DNA from: a virus
Lineage: Duplodnaviria > Caudoviricetes
Virus record (IMG/VR): IMGVR_UViG_3300044904_000102
Coordinates: 1,729-65,728 of that record
Length of the DNA: 64,000 bases
Reading direction: 5' to 3' (one strand)
Both the position numbers and the translations under genes were made by a program. The notes under the pieces are model-generated. The model saw only the letters and a program-made list of their open reading frames with translations, had not been told where the DNA came from and ran no database searches. This document shows positions 2,577 to 57,732 of this stretch, piece by piece (position 1 is the stretch's first letter; the number at the start of each line of letters is the position of its first letter).

Positions 2577-2610
2577 AGGCCCGCTCGGCTGCAAGGCTGG
2601 GCGGGCCTTT
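2577..2610 (+). terminator. GCAA-tetraloop hairpin with short U tract just before the portal start
   Basis: aggcccgctcggct GCAA ggctgggcgggcct tt. Confidence 0.45.
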
Positions 2611-2617
2611 GGATTTG

Positions 2618-5600: not shown

Positions 5601-5980
5601 CGGCACAGGTCGGAGAAGGTCCGCTTGCTGCCACGGACAGCAGCGTGGGCAGCCGCAGCCATCGCGCTGCGCCTCTCGGGACTGCGACGGCTGTTGAGGA
5701 TGAGCTGCATTTCAGTGAAAGTTCTGATTCTGAACCCGTGACGCTTAAACAACTCGCGAATCGTGAGACTGTGACAGCCAAAAGTTTTGGCGATATCGAC
5801 CGAAGACTCGCCGGCCTCATATCGGCGGTAGAGGTCGTTGACATCTCCGAAATTGATTTTGAGGGGCATGTCGGCAATCTCCAGACAGGAACAGGATTTT
5901 ATTTCACAGACGGAATTTTAACACACAACTGCCTGTGCAGCATCGTGCTGGCCGAACCGTCCGATGAGGGAGCGGAGTAG
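2618..5980 (+). CDS. Portal protein fused through a Gly/Pro-rich linker to a MuF-like minor head domain, containing an intein
   Basis: Portal motifs YGMSPCEQL, GSVPG, IAFGFGISPQRL, GVLTPNEGRERLG; MuF motifs RASTIARNEIARA, HDKDDICNEL, PAHVN/CLC. Confidence 0.88.
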   Translation: MANSTSIIIRPLGQLVAALSRYGQQLYQPPKDTIRGVEPDTWYSPLQPVKPIGPPGIEPRGFQYYAGQNLLWTPRADAEYSAADLKELARYPLARIAIENVKDELCKASWQIQPRPQLGESRKAATKRGLEDVNLLKLNKFFEMPDREHTWPEWLRPLLEDMLVIDAWSILIRKTFSGEVVELIGLRGDSIVRYIDENGFTPLPPEPAYAQLWWGIPLINLSTDQLVYKPRNIVPRNTIASQLYGMSPCEQLAPEIEIGIKRLAFISAYYSDGSVPGAMQVVPKGVPTEKIAEAMQWMNSELAGNLAKRRQWQLIQGWKDEGKDEQIIFPKEPLLADLFDEQHTRRIAFGFGISPQRLMRQMNRAAAQASQEAADIEGLLPYFSSLKALMDFIIRRKMGFDAYEMVFDPLAEPDPSKQAETIKIYVSGGVLTPNEGRERLGEEARSEPEADMLGIVTGTGFVPLGGAGGLSTPAPTPPKSGEGVTDGIPDKGKGGAGASGGDEELDADGKPIVADGRGQPRKPASANKPNGGAAAKAQTENRPIGFATGTVLTESAPPEHGVLTIAAASGEHFIKAKPQPREVPVIHPGRLLPPSILARHKMERDLTKIFRTMHRKTTKVMAAALGLPHGHLAKAEPDADATLREVMDSLAAEWETIARLAKKPLTDAALAGASKGALELEISAEDMLTGINETARKWASNRAAELVGMRLTPEGKFIVNPNPKWAISDTTRDKLRSVITDVFGQEGKITLRDVENRIEQSGVFSDVRASTIARNEIARAQTQGNLKSWRESGLVQKVSWELSEDHDKDDICNELEGQYDINDVPDLPAHVNCCLPGTVVTACGGIAAQLSRRYKGKAIVIGTETGEHLAVTPNHPVLTGRGLVGAGVLRKGDYVFRSGTPRLAALIIDPDHDNVPTVIEEIGRALLEAGGVSTGGMPISAEDFHGDGIVDGEVNIVWSADFLELDRASRKKRGHFSLVARDMAHGIGFPASRPAAQVGEGPLAATDSSVGSRSHRAAPLGTATAVEDELHFSESSDSEPVTLKQLANRETVTAKSFGDIDRRLAGLISAVEVVDISEIDFEGHVGNLQTGTGFYFTDGILTHNCLCSIVLAEPSDEGAE
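5114..5929 (+). mobile_element. Intein (272 aa) inserted in the MuF HxN-CxC motif
   Basis: Block A CCLPGTVV, block B LAVTPNHPVLT..GLV.AG.LRKGD, blocks F/G FEGHVGNLQT...FTDGILTHN|C; removal restores PAHVNCLCSIV. Confidence 0.93.
5120..5869 (-). CDS. Homing-type endonuclease (N-terminal HTH plus DUF559/Vsr-like nuclease), antisense and nested inside the intein
   Basis: LYRRYEAGESSVDIAKTFGCHSLTIRELFKRHG (HTH); SYERKM...FQKVCGPYNIDLA...VAVEIFGGNWH...RTAYLLNHGWHVVVVW; GGAG SD 9 nt before ATG. Confidence 0.85.
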   Translation of the reverse strand: MPLKINFGDVNDLYRRYEAGESSVDIAKTFGCHSLTIRELFKRHGFRIRTFTEMQLILNSRRSPERRSAMAAAAHAAVRGSKRTFSDLCRRARGREANAVRHITSYERKMAALLSGCSIQFQKVCGPYNIDLAVNDSVAVEIFGGNWHSSGTHASRFQKRTAYLLNHGWHVVVVWVNNQGCKSWRPAAKHIIALAQNSGSDKSSPREYRMVWSHGEVFARLGPDYNGLPLVTPRKLRRNAATGRYYSSR

Positions 5981-6106
5981 TAATGCGCCATGCAAACGAA
6001 GTGCGGAAAGAACCAAGCATGAGGCCAGCGGCTCCAAAGCGACCGGTCCCGCAGCCGGGAATCACGACGGCGCTGGGTTTCAACTTTTGCGATTCGAGGT
6101 GACACG

Positions 6107-6262
6107 ATGACGGCTCCATGGAGTTTGATTTGTCTGGTTCTCGCGCTGGTGCTGTTCGCACTTGGCGCCTTCGCGTGGCCGATCCCGTTCGACGGCTGGC
6201 GCGTGAAGATCGTCTCGGCGGGCCTGATGTTCCTGGTCCTGTCGCAGCTGATTCGGGCTTGA
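6107..6262 (+). CDS. Small two-TM membrane protein
   Basis: Read manually: MTAPWSLICLVLALVLFALGAFAWPIPFDGWRVKIVSAGLMFLVLSQLIRA; GAGGT SD. Confidence 0.6.
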   Translation: MTAPWSLICLVLALVLFALGAFAWPIPFDGWRVKIVSAGLMFLVLSQLIRA

Positions 6263-6271
6263 GAGGGGAAG

Positions 6272-6427
6272 ATGCTGCTTCTGATCATCATCTTGATCCT
6301 CCTGTTCGGCGTGCCCACCTTCGGCTACTACCGCGGCGGGCCCGCATGGGGAGGCGGCGCGCTGGGATTGATCCTCGTCATCGTGCTGATCCTCTGGCTT
6401 CTCGGGCAGATTCAATTCGTGCGCTGA
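6272..6427 (+). CDS. DUF3309-like small membrane protein
   Basis: Read manually: MLLLIIILILLFGVPTFGYYRGGPAWGGGALGLILVIVLILWLLGQIQFVR; GAGGGG SD. Confidence 0.7.
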   Translation: MLLLIIILILLFGVPTFGYYRGGPAWGGGALGLILVIVLILWLLGQIQFVR

Positions 6428-6445
6428 AGACGTTGAAAGAATGCG

Positions 6446-6997
6446 ATGGCATCCGCAACCGTAAAACTCGCGTGGGATTACCGGGGCGTTCGCGTTGCCC
6501 CTTCGGGTGGGGATGGCCAAACGTACGAAGCCGCCGCCGCGTGGCTCGCCGAGCTGGGTTGCAATGAAGTCCAAGACTGGGGATGCGGCACAGCCTGGGC
6601 GAGGAAAATCTTCGTGCAGCGCGGGATCAGATACGTCGGGCTCGACATTGCTCCCGGCTTCGCCGATGAGATCGTGAATCTGGTGAATTTCGTGGGGCAG
6701 ACGGACGGCATCGTCATGCGGCACGTGCTGGAGCACAACTACGCGTGGAAAGACATCCTGCGCAACGCGCTCGCATCTTGCCGCCACCTGGCGCTGGTGA
6801 TCTTCACGCCGTTCACCAGGGGCGAAGAGTGCCGCCTTGCCTGGAATGCGCGCGAGGGCGTCCCTGACCTGTCTTTGAACAAGACCGAGTTGACAGGCAT
6901 CCTCGAGCAGTGGAAAGAGAAGCGGCTCAAAACGCCGACCCAGTACGGAGAAGAAACCATCTTCTTCGTTGGCGGAGAACGCGATGCCGTACTCTAA
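6446..6997 (+). CDS. Class I SAM-dependent methyltransferase
   Basis: VQDWGCGTAW motif I, YVGLDIAP, DGIVMRHVLEH. Confidence 0.85.
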   Translation: MASATVKLAWDYRGVRVAPSGGDGQTYEAAAAWLAELGCNEVQDWGCGTAWARKIFVQRGIRYVGLDIAPGFADEIVNLVNFVGQTDGIVMRHVLEHNYAWKDILRNALASCRHLALVIFTPFTRGEECRLAWNAREGVPDLSLNKTELTGILEQWKEKRLKTPTQYGEETIFFVGGERDAVL

Positions 6998-8633
6998 CGT
7001 CAAGGAAGTCCCGGATTACGTGCCGAAGGAGAATCGTGCCCAATGGCGCGAAGTCTGGAACGGCGCCTACGCGGCGGCCATCAAGGACGGCAAGGGGAAA
7101 AAGGAAGCGGAGCAGTCGGCTTTTGCACAAGCCAACTCAGTTTCAGGGCCGAACGCAAAGAGCGACAAGGAGACGATCATGAAATCCTTCTCGAAGTTCA
7201 TCCCGTTCGCCAAGGTTGATGCGGCGCGCCGCGAGGTGTGGGGAATCGTCACCGCTGAGGTGCCGGACAAAGATGATGAGGTCTGCGATTACCTCCTCTC
7301 GAAACCGTACTACCAGGCCGTGATCGACGAGATGGGCAAGGCCACGGCCGGGGAGAACTACTTCCCGCTGCGCTACATGCACCAACTCGAGGCGGTGGGG
7401 AAGTGCATCGGCTTCGATTTCCGCGACGCCGACAAGGAAATCTTCATGGGCTTCAAGGTCGTGGACGACCAAGCCTGGCAGAAAGTCGAGGAGCGAGTGC
7501 TCACGGGATTCTCGCATGGCGGCAAGATCGTCGGGATGCATCCGGACCCGAAGTTCGAAGGCTGCAAGCGCTACGTCGCGGACCCCTCGGAAATCTCTCT
7601 GGTCGATAATCCCTGCCTGGCGAGCGCCCACTTCACGCACATCAAGGCGGACGGCACGGTCGAGCTCTGCAAGTTCCTGCGGGTCGAGCCCGTGGCGCCC
7701 GGCCGGTTGGAGGCCGTCGAGCGCTCCCTTGCGCTTCTCAAGATGCGGCTCTCCCTGGGCAAGTCGGATGAGTCTCTCGACCAGCGCCGGACAGCCGTTC
7801 AGGCGGCGATCCAGGATGATTACAGCGAACTGAGCAATGATCCCGCACAGGTCCAATGGGCATATCTGAGGGAGTTGTTCGACGATCATGCCATCTTCGG
7901 TAAAGAGGGCAAATTGTTTAGCGTGCCCTACACCATCGACGACAAGCAGAACGTCAAATTGGGCGCTCCCACGCAAGTCCAGGTCGAATATCTGCCGGCC
8001 GGAAAGGCAGCGGGCGCAGCGCTTGTAAAGGTAAAGACGAAGCGCGTGGCAGGAGAAGACCTGCCAGCTTCGGCCTTCCTGATCGTGCTCGATCCGGACA
8101 AGACCGAGACCTGGAACCTGCCAGTGCGATTCTCGTCAGAAAAGAAATCGAAGAGTCACGTCCGGAACGCGCTCGCACGCTTCAACCAACTGAAGGGCGT
8201 GCCGCAGGCGGCGAAGGATGCGGCCTGGAAGAAGTTGGTTGCCCTGGCCGGCAAGTACGACATCGACGTGGCCACAGAGAAGGCGAAGCTTGCGGCGATC
8301 CAGGCGTGGATGCGCAAAGCCGTTCGGACCCACATCAACCAACTCTCGCGCACCGTCAAGGGTGGGAATATCGGTTATGCGCTCGCGACGCTCGACAATG
8401 ATCTTGGCCGGCTCGCGAAGGGATTCAGTCAAGTTTCGCAACTCTCGCAGATCGTTGAGGCGCTCGCTTATCTGGTTTATAGCACGGCGGGAGAATCCGA
8501 GATGGAGGGCGACGACTCGCCTCTGCCCGGCCTGCTCGCCGACAATGTGGACGCGATCCTCGACACGCTCTTGCGGATGGTCGAGGAGGAGTCCGAAGAG
8601 GTGCGGGCCGATCTCAGCGCCCGCGTCTCCTAA
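6984..8633 (+). CDS. Multidomain prohead protease: N-terminal ChaB-like, XkdF-like serine protease, DUF6582-like domain
   Basis: MPYSNVKEVPD..AQWREVWNGAY..AEQSAFAQA (ChaB); AKVDAARREVWG..YMHQLEAVG..LTGFSHGG..EISLVDNPC; LPASAF..LPV..SHVRNALARFNQ. Confidence 0.8.
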   Translation: MPYSNVKEVPDYVPKENRAQWREVWNGAYAAAIKDGKGKKEAEQSAFAQANSVSGPNAKSDKETIMKSFSKFIPFAKVDAARREVWGIVTAEVPDKDDEVCDYLLSKPYYQAVIDEMGKATAGENYFPLRYMHQLEAVGKCIGFDFRDADKEIFMGFKVVDDQAWQKVEERVLTGFSHGGKIVGMHPDPKFEGCKRYVADPSEISLVDNPCLASAHFTHIKADGTVELCKFLRVEPVAPGRLEAVERSLALLKMRLSLGKSDESLDQRRTAVQAAIQDDYSELSNDPAQVQWAYLRELFDDHAIFGKEGKLFSVPYTIDDKQNVKLGAPTQVQVEYLPAGKAAGAALVKVKTKRVAGEDLPASAFLIVLDPDKTETWNLPVRFSSEKKSKSHVRNALARFNQLKGVPQAAKDAAWKKLVALAGKYDIDVATEKAKLAAIQAWMRKAVRTHINQLSRTVKGGNIGYALATLDNDLGRLAKGFSQVSQLSQIVEALAYLVYSTAGESEMEGDDSPLPGLLADNVDAILDTLLRMVEEESEEVRADLSARVS

Positions 8634-11207: not shown

Positions 11208-14141
<2,934 letters not shown>

Positions 14142-31272: not shown

Positions 31273-33768
31273 ATGCCAACGGTTAATCCACTAATCAATC
31301 TCAACGACGCGACCCCGGCCGCGACGACAGGGAGCCGAAACGTCAACTGGCAAGCCGACGCTTCGAATCCGCGGAATGTCTCGGCAGAGTCCCCGAACTG
31401 GGGCTCGGTCAACCCGCAGACCGGAGCGACATACACCATCGATGAGAGCGACCGCGGCAAGCTGGTCGTTTTCTCGCACGGGCCCACCGTGGCTGCGCTA
31501 CTGACGGCCGCCGCGACGCTGGGGGCGGAGTTCCTGTGCGGAGTCGAGAACATCGGCACAGGCTCCGTGACCATCACTCCGGCCGCGGGCACGATCGACG
31601 GAGCGGCAACGCTGGTGCTGGCGGCGGGTTCGAGCGCGCTGATCTTCTCGGACGGGGCGAACTTCTTCACGGTACGCGGTGGCGGCGGCGGCGGCTCGAC
31701 GGGCCCGACCGGCCCGACCGGGCCCACCGGACCGCAAGGTGCCGGCATTCAGGCGGTCTTGATTCAATCGGCCAGCGTGGATACCGGGGGTGGCAGCGGG
31801 AATCCAGAATCCGTGGCCTTTGGTTCTAATAACTCAGCTGGCAACATGATTTTAGCGATGGCGAACGTAAATATGTTCTTCCCCGGCGGGCCGACCTTCC
31901 CGTTGCCGACAGACACTCAGGGGAATACTTACGTGAACCTGGGCACGATGAACGCTGGCGCGGTGGGTTTTCAGGGGACTGTCTGGGCCGCCTTCAACAT
32001 CAAGGCTGGTGCGAACACTGTCACGCAGCCCAACGGAGTGCTGAACGGGGACTTCGCCTTCACGGTGGCCGAATACAACGGCGTGAACGCCTTTGACCTT
32101 TTCGTGGATTGCACGGCGACGCGACCGGCTGCTTCGATCGTGCCGACGAACGCGAAGGACCTGATCGTCGCCATCGGGGGCGGCACGGGCCTGGCCACGA
32201 TCACGGACACGAGCGGGTGGGACTGCAAGGTGCTCACCGGCGGGCTGCAAGCCGTCGCGGAGGTTTCCGTAACGGCCCTTGGCACCTACAGCGACACGGT
32301 GACCATAAACGGAGCTACGCCAAACGCCTTCGGAATATTGGCGCTCAAACTGTCGGCGGGCCAGCAAGGAGTTCCTGGACCAACGGGGCCCACCGGGGCA
32401 ACTGGCGCAACTGGTGCAGGCGGCTCGACCGGCTCGACCGGCTCGACCGGCTCGACCGGCGCCACCGGCCCCACGGGCCCCACGGGCCCGACTGGACCTG
32501 GCGGTGATACCGGACCCGCGGGCCTGACAGGCGGTATTGGCCCTACCGGCCCCACCGGACCAACAGGGCCCACGGGAGCCACGGGCGCAGCCTCGACCGT
32601 TCCTGGGCCTACGGGCAACACTGGTGCCGTTGGTCCCACAGGACCCATTGGTCCAACAGGCGCCACAGGGGATCAAGGCAACGCGGGTTCGACCGGAGGA
32701 GGAGCGGTCGAGATTTTCTCGAAAACATACTACACCTCGACGCAGCGTGCCTTTGGCTCAGACTACGAGAACACGAGCGGCTACGGGAAGATCATCGTTG
32801 GCGTGTATCCAGCAGGCGCTGGGGTTCCGGTAGTGTCTTGCTACGTTCAGAAGGCGGGTTCCTACGTCAACCATGCGGGCCTCGTGAATGCGGCCAACAT
32901 GGTCAGCTCGTACAGCTCTGGGGCGTCCTCTTATTACTATGACTTCATGTTTTGTGTTCCTAACAACTGTTACTATACGGTGCAGTACTCCGGGGCCACG
33001 GCTCCCACACTCGCTTCTTGGGTGGAACTCACGTGTTCTGGCGCCTCGGTGAACAACGGCGCGATTTCCGGCTTGACCGATGTGGGAGGGTCGCGGGGAT
33101 TCGGTGGCGGGAGCGGAAGCGCGACCAACGTCAGAACCAACTCGTCCGGATCTGCGCTTCTTATTTGCGCGATCTTCCAAACCAACGCGAACGCCAGCGG
33201 CATACCCTGCGTTTATACCTGCTATTGCGACAACGCCGCCGCCCCGACCACGCCGGTCTATGCCATCACCGCCGTCCCCACCGCCAGCTACTTCACGACG
33301 GTTTGGATGCTGGTGCCGAACGGGTACAAATATCAGATTACGGAAGTTGCCAACGTCTCGTATCCGCCCGCCATCATCCACTGGTACGAGTTCGTGATGC
33401 CGTTCAACGCTGTGCAGTCATCCGACCTGGCGACAGCACCGGCTCAAAGGGTCCTCTGCGTGACAAACGTAGGTAGTAACACCCTGATTCAGTATCCCAC
33501 CTATCTTAACAACCAGTTGAAGGATCTGTTCGTCAGCGTGACGATGGCTCAGACTGCTACGAGTAACGCTTGGGCTAATAGTAGTGCTATGGTGGGGTAC
33601 AACTCTAGTTTTGTGCCTGTTCAATCGATGGAGTGGATTATGGATTCGCATCCCAGCACCGCCACGGCGGCGTCTCTTATTTGGTCGATGCTTTACGAGT
33701 TTTACTGGATGGGGTACCAAAGTGGTTCCGTCACGCTGTCCCACTGGTTCGAGTACCAACTTTCTTGA
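31273..33768 (+). CDS. Tail fibre with collagen-like Gly-X-Thr repeats
   Basis: [21 protein letters not shown]-terminal fibre motif; GPT/GAT/GST triplets; beta-rich C-terminus. Confidence 0.8.
32422..32457 (+). repeat. 9-bp tandem repeat (ggctcgacc)x4 encoding (GST)4
   Basis: Read directly. Confidence 0.9.
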
Positions 33769-40312: not shown

Positions 40313-41563
40313 ATGGAAACAGACAACTCAGAACAGATTGAGGCCGCGTGCGTCGAGATGACCGCCCTGCTGATCAATAGCTGGATTCGGACGGATCAGG
40401 ACTCCGAGTTTCGGCCGCTGGCCATGCCGCCCAGAAAACCCATGCGTAAGACGTTCAAATATCGGCTATTCACGACACGCCTCCAAGAAGCGGCCTTGGA
40501 AGAACAGCTTGGTGAGGCTTGCCGCCTCTACAACGCTGCGCTCCAAGAGCGTCGGGATGCCTACAAGACCTGCCGCAAGTCGCTTAACTATTATGACCAA
40601 GCCAACCAGCTTCGGGAGATACGTGCGGCCAAGAATAGCGGTCTGACGAATTACTCCTGCTCTCAGGACGTGCTTCGCCGTGTGGATAAGGCGTTCAAAG
40701 CGTTCTTTCGCAGGGTAAAGCTTGGCCAGAATCCCGGCTATCCGAGATTCAAGTCCCGCCGCAGGTTCGACAGCATCACCTTTCCCTCCTACGGAGATGG
40801 TATTCGGCTGAAGGAGAAGATGCTCAGGGTGCAGGGAATCGGGAACATCAAGGTCAAGCTCCACCGACCTCTTATTGGAACTGTCAAGACTGCCACGCTC
40901 AAGCGGGAATGTGAGAAGTGGTTTGTGTGCTTCTCCGTGGAGTATCAAGCCCAACCGCTTCCTCCTCTTTCCAACGAGATTGGGATTGATGTGGGTCTGG
41001 CGGATTTCGCCACCCTGTCCAACGGCAAGTCGATTCCCAACCCCCGATTCTACAAACTCGCCGAGCCGAAACTTCGGCGTGCTCAGCGCAAGGTTGCTCG
41101 GCGTAAGAAGGGTTCCAACCGTCGCCGCAAGGCGGTAGCCCTGCTTCAGAAAGTACATGCTCGAATCAAAAATCAGCGCAACGAGTTTCAGCACAAGTTC
41201 TCGTTCTGGCTGGTCAGGAACTTTGGGACGATTGCGATAGAGCATCTGAACGTCAAGGGCTTGGCGGCTGGTACGCTTTCCAAGTCGGTTCACGATGTGG
41301 CTTGGGCTGCCTTTTTCTCCAAGCTTGCGTACAAAGCTGAAAATGCTGGTCGCAGGCTGATAGCGGTAAACCCAAGCGGAACGAGCCAGACATGCCTGTG
41401 CGGGGCGAAGGTGCGGAAGACGCTCTCGGATAGGGAGCACGTCTGCACGACCTGCGGACTGATTGCGCCTCGTGATGTGGTGTCTGCTCAAGTAATACTC
41501 CAACGGGCTCGGATAAGCCCTTCAAGTGTTAACGCAAGCGTAGTAGAGCTAAGCGTAGCTTGA
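40313..41563 (+). CDS. tnpB: IS200/IS605-family RNA-guided nuclease TnpB (canonical start 40442)
   Basis: MRKTFKYRL, GYPRFKSRRR, IGIDVGL (D), IAIEHLNVKG (E), TSQTCLCG..HVCTTCG..RDVVSA (D). Confidence 0.95.
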   Translation: METDNSEQIEAACVEMTALLINSWIRTDQDSEFRPLAMPPRKPMRKTFKYRLFTTRLQEAALEEQLGEACRLYNAALQERRDAYKTCRKSLNYYDQANQLREIRAAKNSGLTNYSCSQDVLRRVDKAFKAFFRRVKLGQNPGYPRFKSRRRFDSITFPSYGDGIRLKEKMLRVQGIGNIKVKLHRPLIGTVKTATLKRECEKWFVCFSVEYQAQPLPPLSNEIGIDVGLADFATLSNGKSIPNPRFYKLAEPKLRRAQRKVARRKKGSNRRRKAVALLQKVHARIKNQRNEFQHKFSFWLVRNFGTIAIEHLNVKGLAAGTLSKSVHDVAWAAFFSKLAYKAENAGRRLIAVNPSGTSQTCLCGAKVRKTLSDREHVCTTCGLIAPRDVVSAQVILQRARISPSSVNASVVELSVA

Positions 41564-42342: not shown

Positions 42343-43602
42343 ATGGACAATGAATTGGCAGTACGCGAATCGAATGTAGAGTTAGCAATCACTCCGGTTA
42401 TGGATCTTGCAACTGCGAAGGCAAGACTGGCGCAGTTCCAAGAATTTGTCGCTGAGTACATGGTGCCCGAAGAGGATTTTGGCACCATTCCAGGGACGGC
42501 GAAACCGACGCTTCTGAAACCGGGAGCAGATAAACTCTGTGAACTGTACGGCCTGAGCGATGAGTATGAGATTTTATCGGAATACTCGCGCGAAGACTGG
42601 ACAATGATCCCGCCGCTTTTTGATTACACCATCCGAGCTCTTCTGCGGAGCAAACGGTCGGGGGCCCTCGTGGCGACGGGCATGGGCTCCTGCAACAGTT
42701 ACGAGGGCAAGTACCGCTGGAGGGATCTAAAGCGGGGCTGCCCAGAATGCGGGCAAGCCACCGTCATCAAGGGAAAAGAAGAGTACGGCGGTGGCTGGCT
42801 TTGCTGGAAGAAAGACGGGAAGTCGAACGGCTGCGGGGCGAAGTTCGCTGATGATGATCAGAAGATTACGGAGCAGACGGTGGGCCGAATTGAAAACGAA
42901 GACATCGCCACGTTGAAAAACACAATCCTCAAAATGGCCAAGAAGCGGGCGAAAGTTGACGCCACGCTTTCAGCAACCCGTTCCTCTGGCATCTTCACCC
43001 AGGACATGGAAGACATCACGCCGGATGCCGGGGAGAAAGCGAAGCCCCGCGCAATCCAACAACCACAGCGGAAGAAGGCAGAGGTACAGCCGGAACCCGA
43101 GCGCACCGTCCAACTTGTGAGCGACGCGGAGCGCGAGGAAATCTTCAAAGTCGCCAAGGAGGCCGGATTCCCGGGCAAGGCGGAAGTCAGCGCGTTCTTG
43201 CTCGGCCAATTCGGATGCAAGACCACGGCGGAAGTCACGGCGGCGCAATATCCGAAGGTTCTTGATGCCGTCCGTGCATGGAAGCCCCCGGAGTCCGTTA
43301 AAGCAGATACGGCAGCCAAGGGGAAGGACAAGAAGAAAAAGCCAGAAGCCGCAGCACCCAAGGCGAACGCGCCGCCAGCACAAATCATCAACGACGACGA
43401 GAAGGGAAGGGTTTGGCAGTCTGCCCGGACATACCTTTGGACGCGGGGGACGGGCCATCCTGACGACCCATTGCATGTTTTCCTGATGCGGCCGCCGCTC
43501 GAGTGTGATTCCGTGGCGAAGATCCCGAAGCATGCTTATGCCGCCGTCATGAACCAACTGCGGCAGGGCCCGCAGTCGGTGGGCCTGGAGATCGTGAAAT
43601 GA
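42343..43602 (+). CDS. Putative ssDNA-annealing/recombination protein
   Basis: DFGTIPG..KPTLLKPGADKL, NTILKMAKKRA.VDA...SGIFTQD; near exonuclease. Confidence 0.6.
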   Translation: MDNELAVRESNVELAITPVMDLATAKARLAQFQEFVAEYMVPEEDFGTIPGTAKPTLLKPGADKLCELYGLSDEYEILSEYSREDWTMIPPLFDYTIRALLRSKRSGALVATGMGSCNSYEGKYRWRDLKRGCPECGQATVIKGKEEYGGGWLCWKKDGKSNGCGAKFADDDQKITEQTVGRIENEDIATLKNTILKMAKKRAKVDATLSATRSSGIFTQDMEDITPDAGEKAKPRAIQQPQRKKAEVQPEPERTVQLVSDAEREEIFKVAKEAGFPGKAEVSAFLLGQFGCKTTAEVTAAQYPKVLDAVRAWKPPESVKADTAAKGKDKKKKPEAAAPKANAPPAQIINDDEKGRVWQSARTYLWTRGTGHPDDPLHVFLMRPPLECDSVAKIPKHAYAAVMNQLRQGPQSVGLEIVK

Positions 43603-44759
43603 AAATCTCTCCGCTCTGCGGTGAGTGTATGGCGACGAAACTTCGTACAAAAGACGACGTGCACGGCCAGGTGATACACACAGTGACTTGCACAGTCAAA
43701 GTCAAGGTGCCCAAGGCGCTTGCGGCGGGGCTCGAGGCTCTGCACGAGAAGGCGGCTGGGGCGGTGAAGGAGATGCTCGCTCATCGGGATCGTAGCTCCA
43801 CGAAGCATTATCCCACAATCCCGAGCGTCATCGCCAAAAGCCTGGTCGCCAAATATCAGCGCAACGCCAAATGCCGGCACGTCGCGCACCTGGTCCTTCC
43901 ATTGGTGGGAGACAAGGGGAAGCAAATCAAGTTGGAGGCTGGGGGGATACGCATTCCCGCTCTTTTCAAGAAGGCGGTTCTTCCCGTTGTGTGGCTGCGG
44001 CCGGTAGTCGGGTTCGTGCGCAGCGCCGAATTCTTTCGTCGCGGATCGGATTGGTTCGCTTCGATCTGCTACAACACGGCCGCCGAACCGGCTTTCCGGC
44101 CCACGGGCATGGTAGGAGTAGACCGCAACTCGGTCGGTCACGTTGCCACTTTGGCAGATCTGGAGAACGGAAAGGTTTTGCATTTGGGCTATAGCCCGGC
44201 TGCCACAAAGACGGTCTGGCGCGGCCGCCGGGGCAATCTGCAAGCTTCCGGGAGACGGCGCCTTCTCTTTCGGATTAAGCGCAAGCAGTCGAGGCGCACC
44301 ACGCACGAGAACCACAAAGTGTCCAAGCAAATTGTGGACTATGCTGCACGCCATCGCCGCGCGGTGGTGGTCGAGCAGTTGGAAGGCATCCGGCGGGGGA
44401 AGTGCCGCCGATACGTCGAGCGCTCCCAATGGGCCTTCTTCCAACTCCTCACCTTCCTCCGCTACAAGGCGGCTTTGCGCAGCGTAATGGTCATCGAAGT
44501 CGACCCTGCGTACAGTTCGCAGGAGTGCTCTCGATGCCACCAGAGATCCAAGCCGGACGGGAAAAAATTCCTGTGCGGCTTCTGCGGACACAACGACCAC
44601 CGAGACGCTAACGCGGCTTTCGTCCTCGCTCAGAGGGCGGAGCCTATCGGTGGAGTGGCGCGGAAGTCAGAGCGTCCGCGTCGGGGCCTATTGGTGGTCC
44701 CCTCTCCGGGAAGCATGGAGCGTGCCGAAGGGTCGGCGAGGCTGATGGCGTGCCCATGA
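43599..44759 (+). CDS. tnpB: Second, divergent TnpB-like RuvC nuclease
   Basis: VGVDRNS (D), HKVSKQIVDYA, VVVEQLEG (E), WAFFQL..LRYKA, VDPAYSSQECSRC..FLCGFCG..HRDANAA (D). Confidence 0.9.
   Translation: MKISPLCGECMATKLRTKDDVHGQVIHTVTCTVKVKVPKALAAGLEALHEKAAGAVKEMLAHRDRSSTKHYPTIPSVIAKSLVAKYQRNAKCRHVAHLVLPLVGDKGKQIKLEAGGIRIPALFKKAVLPVVWLRPVVGFVRSAEFFRRGSDWFASICYNTAAEPAFRPTGMVGVDRNSVGHVATLADLENGKVLHLGYSPAATKTVWRGRRGNLQASGRRRLLFRIKRKQSRRTTHENHKVSKQIVDYAARHRRAVVVEQLEGIRRGKCRRYVERSQWAFFQLLTFLRYKAALRSVMVIEVDPAYSSQECSRCHQRSKPDGKKFLCGFCGHNDHRDANAAFVLAQRAEPIGGVARKSERPRRGLLVVPSPGSMERAEGSARLMACP
43605..43710 (-). pseudogene. tnpA: N-terminal remnant of IS200-type Y1 transposase TnpA
   Basis: SHCVYHLAVHVVFCTKFRR matches the TnpA N-terminal motif; the rest is absent. 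Confidence 0.7.
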
Positions 44760-51459: not shown

Positions 51460-52245
51460 ATGACTGGTAATGAAATTCGTCGGCTTGTCGGTGATTGGAC
51501 TGCCCATACTTTCCGGCAGGCTGCGAATGAGGCTGGCTGGCTCGTCAAAAAGGTCGGCGTTGAAAATTTATTCAGTGATCGTATAGGCGCTCGCGACATG
51601 ATTTGTCGTCACGATTCCGCCTGCGGCTGGCTACTACGGGCTTGGCCAGACATGGCGATGCACGCGCGGTTGCATGACGGAATCTTCGAGGCCAATGTTG
51701 AGTCAAAGTCGATGGAAACTCCCCATGACAACGCTTCGGTGGAATTCGTGCAGGTGTGTATCTTGCTTCCTGCAGCGCAACTTGGTGTCCCGATCTACTA
51801 CCTATTTGGAAGACCACGCCCTAGCCAGGGACATCTTGAGGCTTGGATCATTTCTTTGGAAAAGCTGCGGCCGTGGAGAATCGATCTGACGCAACGCAGC
51901 CAGGGGTTTGGGCTCAAGCTAGAGGATAAGGCCAAACTGTATTATCCAGGCGTGAATGTCCTACTTCCCAAGGAAGTGGAAAAGCATACGCTCGCGGGCC
52001 GGACGGGCGCGCCGCCGGGTAGCCGCACGCCATACATGCTCATTCCCAAAACACAGATTATGGACAAGGGTCAGCCTTATGATGACTGGCTGAAAGCTAA
52101 TTCAGACGGAACTTTCACGCCCAAGCAGCGGATTGCGTGGTATGGCAGGGGCAAGGGGGAAGAAGCGGAAGCCCGTCAGAACTGGGGGCATCGCATGACC
52201 TTCAAGGAGTGGCAAGAGAAGAATCACATCAAGGGAGGATGGTGA
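51460..52245 (+). CDS. Putative PD-(D/E)XK nuclease
   Basis: WPDM....EANVESKS catalytic-like pattern; lower GC; coupled to methylase. Confidence 0.45.
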   Translation: MTGNEIRRLVGDWTAHTFRQAANEAGWLVKKVGVENLFSDRIGARDMICRHDSACGWLLRAWPDMAMHARLHDGIFEANVESKSMETPHDNASVEFVQVCILLPAAQLGVPIYYLFGRPRPSQGHLEAWIISLEKLRPWRIDLTQRSQGFGLKLEDKAKLYYPGVNVLLPKEVEKHTLAGRTGAPPGSRTPYMLIPKTQIMDKGQPYDDWLKANSDGTFTPKQRIAWYGRGKGEEAEARQNWGHRMTFKEWQEKNHIKGGW

Positions 52246-53330
52246 TGGAAAAGAGCGACAAGCTCGTACTGCTGCCGCCGCGTGAACTGGGGCCTAACCT
52301 TATTCAGGGCTTGGCGCGTTTGCGTGAAGAAGCGCCTAAGATCATTGACGTGGAAGTCTTCAAGCGACGCATGTTGGTGGTAGAAGAGGCAAGAACTTAT
52401 GCCAAGCAGTTTGGACGTGAAGAGGGAAAATATATACCGCCATACTTCGCGACTCGCCTGACGCTGGAGCGGCGCCTGGGGGAGCTGCTGGCCAGAACGG
52501 TCCATCCTGGGCAGCCACAAAAAAGAATTCTCATCCCGGATGAGAATACTTTACCTGAAGGCATTACCTGGAACCTCTCCAGCGCCGCCCAGGCTCTCGC
52601 GAAGACGCCGAAGCGCTGGTTTAACAAGCTGATCATCGACATCCTAAGCGGTGAGCGGCGATTGAATGTGAAGGAGATTTATCTTGAAGCGAGGCGCATC
52701 GGGGCGGGCGTAACGGCTATCGAAACGGAGAGTGATGGCGTGATCCTGGGGGACTTCCGCGAAGTTGGAAAGGATATTCCCGATAACTCGGTCGCCTTGA
52801 TCTTCACCGATCCGCCGTATGACCGCGCCAGCCTGCCACTTTACGGTGAGGTTGCGAGCCTAGCTAAGCGGGTACTGCTGCCCGGTGGAAGCCTGATCGT
52901 GTATGGGCCCAACTACGCCTTACCTGAAGTCATGAACCTGTGCGGCGAGCATTTGAGCTACTGGTGGACGTTGGCCTTTCTGCTTCCGGGCGATAACGCC
53001 TTGATGCGGGAGTTTGGCGTGCGGGTGGGATGGAAGCCGCTCGTCTGGTTTACCAAGGGGGGCCGCTTTAATAAACAGCAGCTCTTGTTTGATGTCATCC
53101 AAGGCGGAGCTAAGGAAAAAACTGAGCATGAATGGCAGCAGCAAATCGGGGCGGCGGAATCACTAATTAGGTTATTGACGGCCGAAAACGACTTGGTGCT
53201 TGACCCGATGTGCGGATCAGCGACCACGCTTCTCGCAGCGCGGCGCTGTGGTCGGCGTTATTTGGGAATCGAAGTTAAGGCAGAGACGGTAAGTTTGGCG
53301 CGCGAGAGGATGGCAAATCATAAAATCTGA
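52245..53330 (+). CDS. DNA N6-adenine/N4-cytosine methyltransferase (beta class) with N-terminal extension
   Basis: LIFTDPPY, RVLLPGG, VLDPMCGSATT, RRYLGIE. Confidence 0.9.
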   Translation: MEKSDKLVLLPPRELGPNLIQGLARLREEAPKIIDVEVFKRRMLVVEEARTYAKQFGREEGKYIPPYFATRLTLERRLGELLARTVHPGQPQKRILIPDENTLPEGITWNLSSAAQALAKTPKRWFNKLIIDILSGERRLNVKEIYLEARRIGAGVTAIETESDGVILGDFREVGKDIPDNSVALIFTDPPYDRASLPLYGEVASLAKRVLLPGGSLIVYGPNYALPEVMNLCGEHLSYWWTLAFLLPGDNALMREFGVRVGWKPLVWFTKGGRFNKQQLLFDVIQGGAKEKTEHEWQQQIGAAESLIRLLTAENDLVLDPMCGSATTLLAARRCGRRYLGIEVKAETVSLARERMANHKI

Positions 53331-53378: not shown

Positions 53379-53966
53379 ATGACACGAGAACAGCAAGCAA
53401 AAAAGTTGACCGAGCAGGCGAAGGAATCCTACAAGCGGATTGGCCGGGAGTGGACGATGCTCGCGGGGATCTTCGCCAAGGTGATCGACGGCAAATTGTG
53501 GGACATTGAATACGATTCGTTTGAAGACTGGCTTGACGCGGTCGGGGATAAGAAGGAATCACAAGCCCGCGCGATGGCGAACACCTACCGGGAACTATCC
53601 CAAACCGTGGCGGAAGAGGTACTGAGCCAGATGACGTTCACGAACGCCTGCGACTTTGCGAAAGTCCCCGCCGCACGCCGGACGGTCGAGATGGAGCTGG
53701 GGGCCGCGGAACTGCCGAACAACCAATACCGGAAGCAACTCAACATGGCCGTGCCGGGGCTGGCGCTGGAAGAGCGAAGCTACAAAGGCTTCTTCTTGGA
53801 GAAATCGCAGATGGATGTGGTGAATCAGGCTCTCACCCTGTGCCGGGAGCGGGAGAGCCTGGCAACGGACACGGCGGCGCTCGAATACATCTGCTCACAG
53901 TATCTCATCGGAGAGGGAGCGCTCGTGCCGGCGCTCGTCCTGGCGGAAAGCGTGAAAGTGCAATGA
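53379..53966 (+). CDS. Hypothetical protein
   Basis: GGGAG SD; LWDIEYDSFEDWL. Confidence 0.6.
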   Translation: MTREQQAKKLTEQAKESYKRIGREWTMLAGIFAKVIDGKLWDIEYDSFEDWLDAVGDKKESQARAMANTYRELSQTVAEEVLSQMTFTNACDFAKVPAARRTVEMELGAAELPNNQYRKQLNMAVPGLALEERSYKGFFLEKSQMDVVNQALTLCRERESLATDTAALEYICSQYLIGEGALVPALVLAESVKVQ

Positions 53967-54193
53967 GCAAAACGAACGCGGCGATCCGGGCGCTGGACGA
54001 TGAAATCTTCGCGGTCATGATGCGGCATCGCTTTGCCGGAGTCAAAGACCAGGGCATGGACCGAGTGTCCTGGTATGCGGAATGTTCCTGCGGGGCTTAC
54101 ATTCTCTGGCGGTGCATGACGGACACAGGGATTCAAACGCATTTCCGTCACCTTGCGGAGCAGATCGCGATAAGGCTGCGGGAGTTGGGCTGA
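53963..54193 (+). CDS. Hypothetical protein
   Basis: ATGA overlap; H..ECSCG..H motif. Confidence 0.5.
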   Translation: MSKTNAAIRALDDEIFAVMMRHRFAGVKDQGMDRVSWYAECSCGAYILWRCMTDTGIQTHFRHLAEQIAIRLRELG

Positions 54194-54213
54194 TAGGGTA
54201 AGAAAAAGTCACG

Positions 54214-54507
54214 ATGACCAGTCATACCGACCAAATTCGAGCGTTGCTGGACGAAGCGCCTTCGACGGCGTATGAGCTGGCGCGCTTGGTCAAGGTGGGC
54301 GACCGGGCAATGCTGACGGCGCTCTGGCGCTTGATGCGGCGCGGCGAGGTGCAACTGACCGGGCGAGTCATGCGCAAGGTGGGGCATGCCAAAGGGCACC
54401 AAATCTATGAACTCACATCGGGGGGGCACACGGTCCTGCAAGGCCGACAAAAGGGGGAATCTGAAAATGAGCACGCCAATGACGGAAGCCGAGAAGAAGT
54501 GGATTGA
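54214..54507 (+). CDS. Winged-helix DNA-binding protein
   Basis: IRALLDEAPSTAYELARLV..ALWRLMRRGEV..IYELT. Confidence 0.65.
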   Translation: MTSHTDQIRALLDEAPSTAYELARLVKVGDRAMLTALWRLMRRGEVQLTGRVMRKVGHAKGHQIYELTSGGHTVLQGRQKGESENEHANDGSREEVD

Positions 54508-54679
54508 CAACGCATCGTATCGTGACTTGCTTTACAAGATCCGGTTTGCTCCCGTGGGCGAGCCGATGTTCACGGGGGACACCGGAGAGTATTTCGTCAA
54601 GGTGCAGCGCGAACGGCGCGCAGCTCCGGGCGGAGACGTGGAGCACGTCCGCGCCTCGAAAGAGATGGGTGGGCGATGA
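54467..54679 (+). CDS. Conserved phage hypothetical protein
   Basis: KKWIDNASY.DLL...RFAP.G.PMF.G.TGEYF. Confidence 0.6.
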   Translation: MSTPMTEAEKKWIDNASYRDLLYKIRFAPVGEPMFTGDTGEYFVKVQRERRAAPGGDVEHVRASKEMGGR

Positions 54680-55212
54680 AGCCTCGCTGTGTGACTCACA
54701 ACCGGACGCTGCGGAAGATTCCGGGCATCGGCTTCGTCTGCAAGGTAAGGGGCTGCCCGACGCGCATCAAGGTGGACTGGCCGCGCCCGGAGCGCCAGCC
54801 GATGGCGCGGCAGGGGAAGGCAAGGCCCTCACGCGTGACGAAAGGCGGCCGAGTGATCCTGTCACGGCATCATTATGTCGGGCTCTGCTATGAGATTTGG
54901 ATTGATACGGGGAAGCAATGCTCGAAGTGCGGGTGGTCACTCCCGGTATTTTCAACCGAGCTGTTCGATCACATCATCAAGCGCTCTCAGGGCGGCGGGG
55001 ACACGCGGGAGAATCTGCGGCCGCTCTGCGGGCGCTGCCATGACGTGGAAGACAATCAAGGCGGGAAATTATCGAGAAAGCAGCAAATCCAAAAAGAGAG
55101 GGAAACACAACATGGACACACCAGCAACAAAAGAGCCGGGGGCGGAGAAGATTCCGCCAGACATGATCGTCCAAAACCTGTTACTGACGAGCCTTCTGTC
55201 GTCACCGTTTAA
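54676..55212 (+). CDS. HNH endonuclease
   Basis: CSKCG..FDHIIKRSQGGGDTRENLRPLCGRCHD. Confidence 0.82.
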   Translation: MKPRCVTHNRTLRKIPGIGFVCKVRGCPTRIKVDWPRPERQPMARQGKARPSRVTKGGRVILSRHHYVGLCYEIWIDTGKQCSKCGWSLPVFSTELFDHIIKRSQGGGDTRENLRPLCGRCHDVEDNQGGKLSRKQQIQKERETQHGHTSNKRAGGGEDSARHDRPKPVTDEPSVVTV

Positions 55213-55855
55213 CCCTCGGGGGAAGTACAGCCGGGACCCCGAAAAACTGAAAGAGCTGGCCGCCGACATCAAGATGCACGGTGTTCAGCAGGCAATCCTA
55301 CACCTGGCGCTGGTGATCTTCACGCCGTTCACCAGGGGCGAAGAGTGCCGCCTTGCCTGGAATGCGCGCGAGGGCGTCCCTGACCTGTCTTTGAACAAGA
55401 CCGAGTTGACAGGCATCCTCCAGCGCGGGATCAGATACGTCGGGCTCGACATTGCTCCCGGCTTCGCCGATGAGATCGTGAATCTGGTGAATTTCGTGGG
55501 GCAGACGGACGGCATCGTCATGCGGCACGTGCTGGAGCACAACTACGCGTGGAAAGACATCCTGCGCAACGCGCTCGCATCTTGCCGCGTCCGGCCGGAC
55601 GGGGCCGGGAAGTACGAGATCGTCTTTGGAACGCGCCGCGTGGAAGCGAGCAAGATTGCCGGGAAAGAGACGGTCCCGGCCGTCGTACGCGAGCTTTCAG
55701 CCGAAGAAGCGATGACGCTCGCGATGGTTGAAAACTTGCAACGGACAGACATTCATTTCAAGGACATGATGAAGAAAGGGCGACACAAGCCACTTCCTAA
55801 AAGATGGGGTGTGGGTTCACGGCCAGGGCCAGCAAAGGAAGCGAAAGTGCGATGA
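55112..55855 (+). CDS. ParB N-terminal (CTPase-like) domain protein without HTH, interrupted in frame by a 96-codon insertion
   Basis: SPFNPR..LKELAADIKMHGVQQAIL|insert|VRP..YEIVFGTRRVEASKIAG..VPAVVRELS..ALAMVENLQR-like core. Confidence 0.85.
   Translation: MDTPATKEPGAEKIPPDMIVQNLLLTSLLSSPFNPRGKYSRDPEKLKELAADIKMHGVQQAILHLALVIFTPFTRGEECRLAWNAREGVPDLSLNKTELTGILQRGIRYVGLDIAPGFADEIVNLVNFVGQTDGIVMRHVLEHNYAWKDILRNALASCRVRPDGAGKYEIVFGTRRVEASKIAGKETVPAVVRELSAEEAMTLAMVENLQRTDIHFKDMMKKGRHKPLPKRWGVGSRPGPAKEAKVR
55301..55588 (+). repeat. Exact, circularly permuted copy of 6617..6904 (6785..6904 followed by 6617..6784)
   Basis: Base-by-base identity read directly at both loci. Confidence 0.95.
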
Positions 55856-56100
55856 GTTTAGATGTTCCACGTGAAACCTCGGACGGGAATGGGCACATCT
55901 GCCCGGAGTGCAATCATGCCGGGGGCCATCATCTGATGGGCATCGGCTGCACCGTTGTGATCGCGTGGGAGCGTGAAGAGCAAACGAACGGCTTTGGCCA
56001 GGCCGTGCTGCCGCTCGACCTGGTCAAGGCGGAAGAGGACGGGGAGCCGGTCATCCCCGTCCTCTGCCCATGCGAGCGATACGATGAGGGGGCTCGATGA
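55852..56100 (+). CDS. Hypothetical Cys-rich protein
   Basis: ATGA overlap; CPECNH..H..C..CPC. Confidence 0.5.
   Translation: MSLDVPRETSDGNGHICPECNHAGGHHLMGIGCTVVIAWEREEQTNGFGQAVLPLDLVKAEEDGEPVIPVLCPCERYDEGAR
55863..55878. promoter_or_regulatory. Chromosomal-type parS site
   Basis: TGTTCCACGTGAAACC, 15/16 match to consensus TGTTNCACGTGAAACA; 7 nt after the ParB-like stop. Confidence 0.75.
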
Positions 56101-56627
56101 CGAAGAGAAAGCCACTGCCGATGATGAAACATCTGACCTGGCTTGTTAAGACGCTCCTGCGGGCCTACCCTGACAAGGTGTTCGTCCTGGGAATCATCGG
56201 GGAGTTTGCTCGACTGATCCGCAAGCGGCGCAGCGAGAAGCGTGGGGCATCGAGCACAACCTGCATATCCTGCGGAGGATGGATTTCAAAAGAGCGGGAA
56301 GTCTTGCGGCAGCATACATGCTCAGTGCAGTGCCAGGATTGGTATAGGAGATTGACCCGGGCAATCGATGCTGCGAAGTACTGCCGATATTGCGGACATG
56401 GATATCCAAAGGAACGTCAGAAATCGGTCAGTACGCGCCGGCCAGCCCGGGTACGGGTAAGGAGACAGGCAACTGACAGGGACGCAATTAACAGGCGTGG
56501 CGCGGCGCGCCAAGGATACCGTATTCACCGACCGACCATCACACCAGGGACTTTGTTGCGCCTGATTCCCAACAAGCGCGAGGGCGTGGACCGCGAGGCC
56601 GTTGCCGAGGCGCTTGAAAAGAGTTAG
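56097..56627 (+). CDS. Hypothetical Zn-finger protein
   Basis: CISCG..TCSVQC..CRYCG. Confidence 0.5.
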   Translation: MTKRKPLPMMKHLTWLVKTLLRAYPDKVFVLGIIGEFARLIRKRRSEKRGASSTTCISCGGWISKEREVLRQHTCSVQCQDWYRRLTRAIDAAKYCRYCGHGYPKERQKSVSTRRPARVRVRRQATDRDAINRRGAARQGYRIHRPTITPGTLLRLIPNKREGVDREAVAEALEKS

Positions 56628-57002
56628 CATGCTATCCACTTTTGAAACAGTTTGGGCGGTGCACATTATGAGGCTGGTTAACTCGTGGAAGGGGTACGTA
56701 TGGACGAGATTGCAGCCCCCGCAAGGCCGCCCAAAGAGAATGGCAGCACGCGGCGTGGCAGACTCCAACACGCCAGAGGCAAAGATTGCTTGCTCCGTGA
56801 AACTCGGGGCCGTGCTGCCAGAAGTAGGGCGTGCGTCGTCGATGAAGGCTGCAAGGATGGGCTGATAATCGCAAACGGCCACGCCCCAGAAGCAGGGGTG
56901 AGGCGCTCCACCGGCGCCAAGCGAAGCCGGGGGCCAAGTGAGTTTCCCCGGCCACCCCTGCCCTGCTGATGATAAGCCCGGAGCCGGGAAGGAGCCCAAT
57001 CC

Positions 57003-57284
57003 ATGAACTTCCCTGAGTGTACAGGATGCGGAGTGGAGCACCGGAAAAGTTGCCCCGCGTCGACCACCAGCTTGGCACAGCAGGGCTTGCGCATACTCAT
57101 TGCTGCGGGGTGTATGAAAAGCGGCGTTGCTAAACCCGATGATGACGATAGCCTTAAGCAGCCCAGCGAATTGACCGTAGTTCCGACGACGACCGCAACC
57201 TGGTGGTGTTGCTCCGCGGAATTCGGTGAGCATGAACCGACCTGCAAAAACTTCGTGAACCGCCTAAGCGAGGAGAGGAAATGA
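57003..57284 (+). CDS. Hypothetical protein
   Basis: AAGGAG SD; Cys/His motifs. Confidence 0.45.
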   Translation: MNFPECTGCGVEHRKSCPASTTSLAQQGLRILIAAGCMKSGVAKPDDDDSLKQPSELTVVPTTTATWWCCSAEFGEHEPTCKNFVNRLSEERK

Positions 57285-57309
57285 CAGTGACGCGGAAAAG
57301 GAGCAAAGA

Positions 57310-57732
57310 ATGACGCCGGAAAACGCTTTGAAATGGGCAACGTTATTTCATGAAACTTACGAGGCAAACGCTCCGCGTTTTGGCTATGAAACCAGGCTAG
57401 AGACGCGCCGCTTTGACCCGGATTCTGATAACGGCAAACTCATGCTGCTTGTTTGTTCAAAAGTCGTAGAGGTGGCCCAGGCCGAGAACCCCGCCCTCCG
57501 CGAGCGAGCTGAGAAGGCGGAGGCAGCATGCTTGGAGTGGAGACGAATAGTTGCGGATGTGGTTAATTCTGCGGCTTCGTCGGGGATGTACACAGGCGTT
57601 CTTGTTAAAGACGACGCATACTTAAGACTTTGCACTTTCTACGCCCAGTCTATAACCCACGACCAGCCCTCGTCCACGGGCGTGCGGGAGTCCCTGAACG
57701 AGGGGGGGGAAGGAGCCCCCCATGCAAAGTGA
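57310..57732 (+). CDS. Conserved phage hypothetical protein
   Basis: LFHETYEANAPRFGYETR..NGKLM..VC. Confidence 0.6.
   Translation: MTPENALKWATLFHETYEANAPRFGYETRLETRRFDPDSDNGKLMLLVCSKVVEVAQAENPALRERAEKAEAACLEWRRIVADVVNSAASSGMYTGVLVKDDAYLRLCTFYAQSITHDQPSSTGVRESLNEGGEGAPHAK

Follow-up and report, generated by a model that had tools for sequence, protein, structure and literature searches.

A rotated, in-frame copy of a methyltransferase gene segment, in whole units of varying number, within a short ParB-like gene of a phage

A 288-bp internal piece of a methyltransferase-like gene is present a second time in the same phage genome, inside a ParB-like gene, in frame and with its two parts in swapped order. 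The rearrangement is real and recent, and wild populations of this peat phage still vary for it. As to how it arose, we think it more probable than not, at roughly 60%, that a circular or concatemeric copy of the piece was end-joined into a break in the ParB gene. The stretch of DNA that we analyzed, hereafter the window, is 64,000 nt long and corresponds letter for letter to positions 1729-65728 of a 65,728-nt virus record. All positions given below are those of the window unless stated otherwise, and all features lie on its plus strand.

The insert consists of part B (55301..55420, 120 nt), which is an exact copy of 6785-6904 and encodes methyltransferase residues 114-153, followed by part A (55421..55588, 168 nt), which is an exact copy of 6617-6784 and encodes residues 58-113. 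In the donor, the two parts lie in the order A then B, forming a unit of 288 nt, or 96 codons (6617..6904), within the methyltransferase-like gene. At all four ends of the matches the identity could be extended by 0 bases, so that a target-site duplication is absent, as had been claimed. Microhomology was absent as well, the number of bases shared being 0 at every one of the insert's three joints. The target site and the three donor breakpoints all fall in codon phase 0, and the donor frame is read through the insert in the ParB-like gene; in both A and B, stops are present in each of the two alternative frames. The original prediction had also claimed exact identity, joints on codon boundaries and in-frame insertion, and it was correct on each of these points. 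A repeat search of the window returned only the B and A repeat families, with no other long repeat of this kind. As to the shared phase of the four breakpoints, selection for an open frame explains part of it, and the remainder corresponds, by our own count, to about 1 chance in 9.

The donor gene (6446..6997) encodes a 183-aa protein that we describe as a small class-I-like SAM methyltransferase on the basis of its open reading frame and a Pfam match just below threshold. The protein scored 26.0 bits against Methyltransf_23, for which the cut-off is 27, and a near-identical protein, P0001, carries a precomputed PF13489 annotation. The P0001 allele differs from the donor protein by one residue, which lies outside the copied part. 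Homologues of the donor, at 36-72% identity, are either standalone proteins or fused to a glycosyltransferase or to a second methyltransferase domain. The copied part comprises donor residues 58-153, and it leaves out a conserved Gly-rich motif that lies upstream of it (residues 44-50). This DWGCG-type motif was conserved by eye in most of 13 homologue rows, and we take it to be the SAM-binding loop of class I methyltransferases. Since A and B were collinear in that order in 13 of 13 methyltransferase rows (alignment A1), we consider the donor order, A then B, to be the original one. The donor unit is single-copy in the record, a count that short-read collapse could have lowered. The methyltransferase was sought in IMG/VR and in the records of three relatives (fragments, 22-56% estimated completeness) and was not found in either, and blastn of 6000-7400 and of 54000-57000 against phage GenBank records gave no match.

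The target is a short ParB-like gene (55112..55855) whose chimeric product of 247 aa, identical to P0004, runs from the first half of a ParB_N domain through B and A to the second half of ParB_N and a unique tail of 31 aa. Its likely start at 55112 is preceded by a purine-rich stretch that resembles a Shine-Dalgarno sequence by eye. In relatives, ParB is 722 aa long; it matches HTH_ParB, and its long C-terminal part is rich in Cys. In the short-ParB lineage, 107 nt that are unique to it (55765..55871) replace 1,582 nt, or about 530 codons, of the relatives' gene, and the segment so replaced holds the HTH and the Cys-rich C-terminal part. Only the N domain and the 31-aa tail are left in this lineage, an HTH not being found in the short form, and the tail is also present in the insert-free allele P0016.

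We compared the insert-free and insert-bearing proteins with the ParB_N profile (PF02195). P0016 matched positions 4-95 of 95 with 80.4 bits, above the curated cut-off, while the chimera matched positions 45-95 in one stretch at 63.8 bits and positions 4-44 as a separate match of 17.1 bits. The insertion therefore splits the profile at position 44/45, and the insertion site lies within a conserved stretch that is aligned to LQPLLVRP of Spo0J 1vz0. Both halves of the host gene align with the N-terminal CTP-binding domain of chromosomal ParB, Spo0J and Noc (PF02195; PDB 1vz0, 6sdk, 7nfu), and the phage protein has in common with that domain a GxRR box (here GTRR) and an ENLQR box. Unlike the chromosomal proteins, the phage protein consists of the N domain and the 31-aa tail, and in the window it is split by 96 residues.

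Two neighboring genes overlap the ParB-like gene. Directly upstream, an HNH endonuclease gene (54676..55212; PF01844, E 1e-9) that is also present in the related locus L002 overlaps the ParB start, and its product is a candidate source of a break at ParB. Downstream, the ATG of a small Cys-rich gene (55852..56100) overlaps the ParB stop (ATGA, 55852-55855); no Pfam family was found for 55870-56100. Translational coupling of ParB to this downstream gene is possible, and it would favor in-frame insertions.

Related loci gave us a view of the empty site. We used nine loci, six of them from IMG/VR via the segment after the insert and three from a later metagenome search. In blastn alignments of both L001 and L002, window position 55300 lay opposite locus position 3000 and 55589 opposite 3001, with flanks that were 93-98% identical; in L003, 55299 lay opposite 2999 and 55589 opposite 3001. 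A tblastn search across the insertion site gave a match in eight of the nine loci, ungapped there in all eight, and L006 gave no tblastn match at E 1e-5 or better. The expectation that a ParB core would be restored by removing the insert was thereby borne out, as the two flanks are adjacent in the relatives, reading QQAIL followed by VRPDGAGKYEIVFGTRR. When P0016 was used as the query in metagenome contigs, the matches were to long-ParB relatives only (L007-L009).

We next considered whether the insert is present in reads and in separately assembled contigs. From 53500-57500, 413 words were sampled; half or more of these occur in nine of 24 runs listed, and in run X1 the fraction is 1.00, joint-spanning words among them. 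We placed the Logan contigs of four runs (X1, X2, X7 and X8) on 54300-56800, that is, on the ParB side only. Because runs X1-X6 are marked as possible source samples, the support they give is independent of the assembler and not of the sample. In X1 and X2 the left joint is crossed by 30 bases (X1 record 1, 54300-55330; X2 record 12, 54685-55330), the B-to-A joint by 60-nt contigs covering 55391-55450, and the right joint by X1 record 7 and X2 record 16, both of which cover 55559-56800. Parts B and A each form a separate Logan contig, of 120 nt and 168 nt, respectively. The new joints in X1 and X2 have a depth like that of the flanking phage DNA, and the overlaps of k-1 = 30 are those expected where a de Bruijn graph meets a repeat. 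In the contigs of X1 and X2, an empty-site joint was not reported.

In run X8, which is not among the possible source samples, a 369-nt contig (record 27) spans 55184-55424, reaching 117 and 124 nt to the two sides of the left joint, and continues beyond 55424 into the donor's right flank. In X7, the empty-site joint of 55300 to 55589 was found at a depth of 4.3 (side 30), and pieces spanning the insert joints were not among the matches listed. Given that the joined 60-mer from X7 differs from L002 by 1 base and from L001 by 2, it may come from a co-occurring long-ParB relative, and we did not count it as an allele of the phage. The chimeric protein is also recorded from at least four JGI contigs besides the window's record (24,594, 19,382, 66,099 and 68,501 nt). 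The 40-nt B-to-A joint had 0 exact matches in IMG/VR and 0 in JGI metagenome contigs, in searches that may omit the record itself and near records.

The short-ParB backbone with its unique tail occurs with different numbers of units. P0016 (175 aa; two contigs, the longest 65,041 nt) contains 0 units, whereas P0003, P0004 and P0146 contain one B-A unit each, and P0145 (326 aa; contig of 68,501 nt) contains two, arranged B-A-B-A in frame. The insert is a head-to-tail array of whole units, with natural alleles of 0, 1 (the window) or 2. The single B-A copy that had been described is thus accurate for the window, although not as the sole state, since the B-A-B-A allele exists.

Contig depths bear on the same question. 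In X2, where the flanks had depths of 185-194, we found 600 for B (3.2x), 681 for A (3.6x) and 401 for the B-to-A joint (2.1x), the A-to-B joint not being among the matches listed. In X1, with flanks at about 17, the ratios were 2.9x for B, 2.5x for A, 1.3x for the B-to-A joint and 1.8x for the A-to-B joint. Two ParB units plus one donor should give 2 for the B-to-A joint and 3 for each of B and A, which X2 fits, and the X1 depths fit a mixture of unit numbers. These unit numbers were taken from contig depths and from one assembled contig, that of P0145, in which a short-read assembler possibly walked the loop twice. The one unit seen in the window could itself reflect a collapse or a minority form. 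There is a caution here for viral metagenomics: short-read assembly collapses such arrays, and where the window has one unit, the depth suggests up to two.

The route that we favor would have begun with the copying of a 288-bp internal piece (codons 58-153) of the phage's own methyltransferase gene, and it would have ended in a ParB-like gene that had already been shortened. The copy would for a time have been a circle or a head-to-tail concatemer, in which the 3' end of the donor piece adjoins its 5' end. This form would then have been opened at a new point, 6784/6785, and the opened copy joined without homology into a double-strand break in ParB. Because the joints are blunt, we favor end joining over annealing. 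That the frame is preserved would be due in part to the unit's length of 288 nt (96 codons) and to the donor frame being the sole open one, and selection against frame-breaking insertions may act too, as the ParB stop overlaps the start of the next gene. Unit number could later have been altered by homologous recombination, or by template switching, with the array and the donor gene as partners. A change from two units to one would be a simple homologous deletion, and a change from one to two could come from a second circle or from a polymerase that switched templates between donor (A-B) and insert (B-A).

Excision and reinsertion of a mini-circle had been suggested in the original prediction, and the geometry fits that suggestion. 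The first and last units are partial and sum to one monomer, and the circle joint lies inside the array (B then A in the window; B-A-B-A in P0145), so the two-unit allele strengthens the fit. The circle itself was not observed, however, and repair synthesis could give the same product. The array joint at 55420/55421 has the same sequence as a circle joint would have, and an array and a free circle are therefore indistinguishable by depth. A double-stranded circle of 288 bp is physically hard to close, and a single-stranded or dimeric form would have to be assumed.

The alternative that survives best is repair synthesis without a free circle, either through serial template switches (SDSA or break-induced, MMBIR-like) or through the capture of two adjacent donor fragments in swapped order. 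We regard this as unlikely, while granting that it deserves to be taken seriously. The phage contains many nuclease genes, including the HNH gene adjoining the site and two TnpB-like genes, and two adjacent fragments would come to lie in the same orientation and swapped order in 1 of 8 cases, by our own count. Once a first B-A unit was in place, the donor (A-B) and the insert (B-A) would together act as a "virtual circle," and the overlap between them would let switching add units, taking the array from one to two in a way that simple slippage would not. However, template switching usually leaves microhomology, and here 0 bases are shared at the three joints. Flank similarity at the relevant pairs is also ordinary (5-7 of 12), and the exact return to 6784/6785, which is automatic for a circle, would be a coincidence for serial switches.

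A partial similarity between the donor end and the target had been noticed beforehand, and our comparison confirmed it. The 12 nt to the left of the insertion site (55289..55300) have 10 matches, with one 1-nt gap, to the 12 nt at the donor's 3' end (6893-6904). The empirical p for this 10/12 similarity was 3.75e-4 per random-site pair, or about 0.0045 over 12 comparisons, and anchored flank similarity for all other breakpoint pairs was 4-7 of 12. Homology-driven integration of a circle at this similarity predicts the order A-B, and B-A was seen, so we reject it as the mechanism. The similarity is unlikely to be due to chance, but the circle model makes no use of it. It is possible that it marks a shared nuclease site, for example one of the adjacent HNH endonuclease. 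A bolder proposal would be that the phage lifts short gene pieces as small circles or concatemers and reinserts them in frame at nuclease breaks, with the 10/12 match as the nuclease site and with working chimeras as the outcome. We consider this improbable. If it were true, such a lift-and-reinsert route would be a natural engine for domain insertion and circular permutation and for tandem modules of variable length.

The effect that we think most likely is that an accessory ParB_N protein, truncated beforehand, was inactivated or weakened by the insertion, and not that a new enzyme was gained. The insertion is at least tolerated, as the insert-bearing phage is abundant (about 190x in X2). 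The domain-shuffled chimera of the original prediction holds only in the formal sense that the fusion is in frame, as the copy comes without the Gly-rich motif and the ParB_N profile is cut. In the AlphaFold model of the one-unit protein, pLDDT was 82-94 in the ParB halves and 43-64 in the insert, and Foldseek on this model still found ParB and Noc N domains. In the model of the two-unit protein, the central A-B, which is in native order, had a pLDDT of about 77-95, and the ParB halves were modeled confidently while the rest was not. Given that the confident parts follow the supplied alignments, we conclude that AlphaFold and Foldseek do not discriminate a working protein from a broken one.

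These observations also bear on the possibility that the chimera is a selected, working protein, with the methyltransferase fragment, or in the two-unit form the A-B core in native order, serving as a new module for binding or regulation on a CTPase-like ParB_N scaffold, tuned by the number of units. We think this doubtful. The insert-bearing phage is the sole form seen in X1 and X2, at up to about 190x, and it is found on several contigs, all of which implies that the insertion does no severe harm. Both the one-unit and the two-unit allele keep the frame, although a 96-codon unit does so automatically. Both ParB halves and the central A-B of the two-unit protein are confidently modeled, although the models follow the supplied alignments and the insert is poorly scored in the one-unit model, as given above. 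In addition, the copy lacks a motif that is found in most homologues, a conserved stretch of the ParB_N core is cut, and zero substitutions leave no time for a signature of selection.

A tandem duplication within the methyltransferase gene itself (A-B-A-B), with the insert spanning its joint and the excess depth coming from the duplicated donor, seems to us highly improbable. A duplicated donor and a second unit in ParB make the same depth prediction (2, 3 and 3), so the contig depths are as compatible with the one as with the other, and "permutation by duplication" is the classical route, documented for DNA methyltransferases (PMC3320104). Yet no duplicated form of 279 aa was found among 15 matches of 100-321 aa, whereas a two-unit ParB is on record, and the copying of exactly one period would be a coincidence. 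Circular permutation of the protein by duplication was rejected on similar grounds, as a tandem duplication at the donor locus was not seen and the donor is single-copy in the record.

An assembly artefact or artificial edit of the record, which had been put forward as an equal possibility, can be regarded as excluded for practical purposes: perfect identity and codon-exact joints do look designed, and X1-X6 are possibly the samples behind the record, but a different assembler working from reads bridged all three joints in X1 and X2 and the left joint in X8, X1 contains every sampled word, the genome sequence equals the window, and at least four separate JGI contigs encode the chimera, one of them listed beside the methyltransferase allele that differs by one residue.

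Several classes of mobile or programmed element were also rejected. A transposable element (IS, MITE or IS200/IS605-type) does not fit the lack of a target-site duplication, the lack of any inverted repeat of at least 30 nt in the window or the rotation of the copy relative to the donor. For TnpB-guided cutting, the sequences that follow the two tnpB genes had no 11-mer in common with any breakpoint or with the reconstructed empty site. Inteins are marked by Cys, Ser or Thr at the first insert residue and at the first residue after the insert, and by a terminal His-Asn; here the insert begins with His, ends with Arg and is followed by Val. A common cutting motif at a fixed offset in the four breakpoints was set aside as well, since two invariant positions in 40, counted by eye, are about what chance would give by our own estimate. 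A diversity-generating retroelement was rejected by reasoning only, as the copies are identical.

Templated or captured insertions at double-strand breaks, which arise by end joining or MMBIR, are usually short, collinear with their donor and flanked by microhomology. The phage insert resembles them in that an ectopic sequence of the same genome appears to have been copied into a break with no transposase signature. It is unlike them in being 288 or 576 bp long, rotated, composed of whole units and blunt, and our search of the literature on such insertions found no phage case. Circular permutation in DNA methyltransferases was reportedly treated by Jeltsch in 1999 and by Bujnicki in 2002. In permutation by duplication, as PMC3320104 presents it, a whole gene is duplicated in place and its ends are trimmed to a working permuted enzyme. 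The likeness to our case is that an in-frame tandem repeat of a methyltransferase segment gives rotated blocks, and that the two-unit allele resembles the duplicated intermediate. The phage case differs in that the repeat takes up 96 of 183 codons and lies in another gene, that the donor gene is small, methyltransferase-like and of non-DNA type, and that there is no permuted enzyme.

Reintegration of circles has been argued for Drosophila satellites from truncated first and last repeats that together make up one monomer (PMC7403614). The Rsp-like satellites on the Drosophila X described there share with the phage insert a distant array, partial ends that equal one monomer, insertion at a break and a variable number of units. 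In the Drosophila case the source is a satellite, circles were detected and the joints often have 4-7 bp of microhomology, in contrast to the unique coding source, blunt joints, in-frame position within a gene and 100% identical copies of the phage case, for which no circle was seen. The ingredients are known, namely, insertion of ectopic sequence at breaks, reintegration of circles (PMC7403614) and permutation through duplication (PMC3320104). Among the papers that our literature search found, none described a phage gene with an in-frame self-copy that is rotated and variable in copy number.

What textbooks say about how domains are shuffled and proteins circularly permuted was deduced from old, diverged proteins. 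In the present case, donor, empty site and one- and two-unit products coexist at 100% identity in one wild phage population, so the joints are still readable and the steps are directly testable. Finding a circular intermediate would extend the idea of circle reinsertion from eukaryotic satellites to unique phage coding DNA. More probably, a repair accident happened once in an accessory gene that is decaying, and the case would then be a neat but minor example.

Finally, the distance between donor and insert depends on the map. The 48.5 kb that had been stated is right for the linear record. A 24,594-nt contig is the longest contig listed for both P0001 and P0004; from these listings we infer that it carries both the methyltransferase gene and the chimera gene. 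In that case, about 17 kb would separate the two loci across the record ends, and the map would be circular or permuted. The record has a CheckV completeness of 72% and is classed as linear in IMG/VR. ParB alleles of this lineage are recorded from contigs of 65.0-68.5 kb, suggesting a genome about as large.

The ParB-like gene that carries the rotated methyltransferase fragment is short, and about 1.58 kb of the 722-aa ParB of its relatives is absent from the window lineage (window 55765-55871 versus 3177-4758 of L002, a related locus with an uninterrupted ParB). The missing stretch comprises the HTH and the Cys-rich C-terminal part, both of which are present in the relatives, and its place is taken by 107 unique nucleotides (window 55765-55871), which end where the ParB-like gene and the following gene overlap by ATGA. 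Since the insert-free allele P0016 has the same tail as the insert-bearing short ParB, the truncation is older than the insertion.

A contig from sequencing run X8 (Logan contig record 27, placed on window 55184-55424 and then on the donor right flank) runs from the left part of ParB through the 120-nt B segment into the right flank of the methyltransferase gene, at a low depth of 3.3x. Two readings are open to it: the assembly graph was traversed by way of the 120-nt repeat, or the two copies truly recombined.

The methyltransferase and the ParB chimera lie 48.5 kb apart on the whole record, and yet a single contig size of 24.6 kb (24,594 nt) is listed for both; further contigs listed for ParB alleles measure 65.0-68.5 kb. 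Given this one size for two such distant genes, the genome map is probably circular or permuted, despite the record's linear class in IMG/VR and its CheckV value of 72%.

Just upstream of the HNH gene start, a minor variant skips 9 nt (window 54666-54676; depth 6.5 in run X2 and 8.75 in run X7), which is a strain polymorphism. Some 2 kb ahead of the HNH and ParB genes, an N6_N4 DNA methylase gene (52137-53330) encodes a second methyltransferase, which has no relationship to the donor. Two TnpB-like genes, recognized by OrfB_IS605 and Cas12f1-like TNB domains (40313-41563 and 43599-44759), sit among the replication and recombination genes, and a search near their 3' ends for the breakpoint words of the insert and donor found none there.

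Collagen-like Gly-X-Y coding repeats with a 9-nt period (repeat family D1; 13191-13300 and 32395-32603) fall in two structural genes. A 249-aa ORF on the minus strand (5120-5869) lies antisense within a plus-strand gene (2609-5980), a large structural gene bearing an intein.
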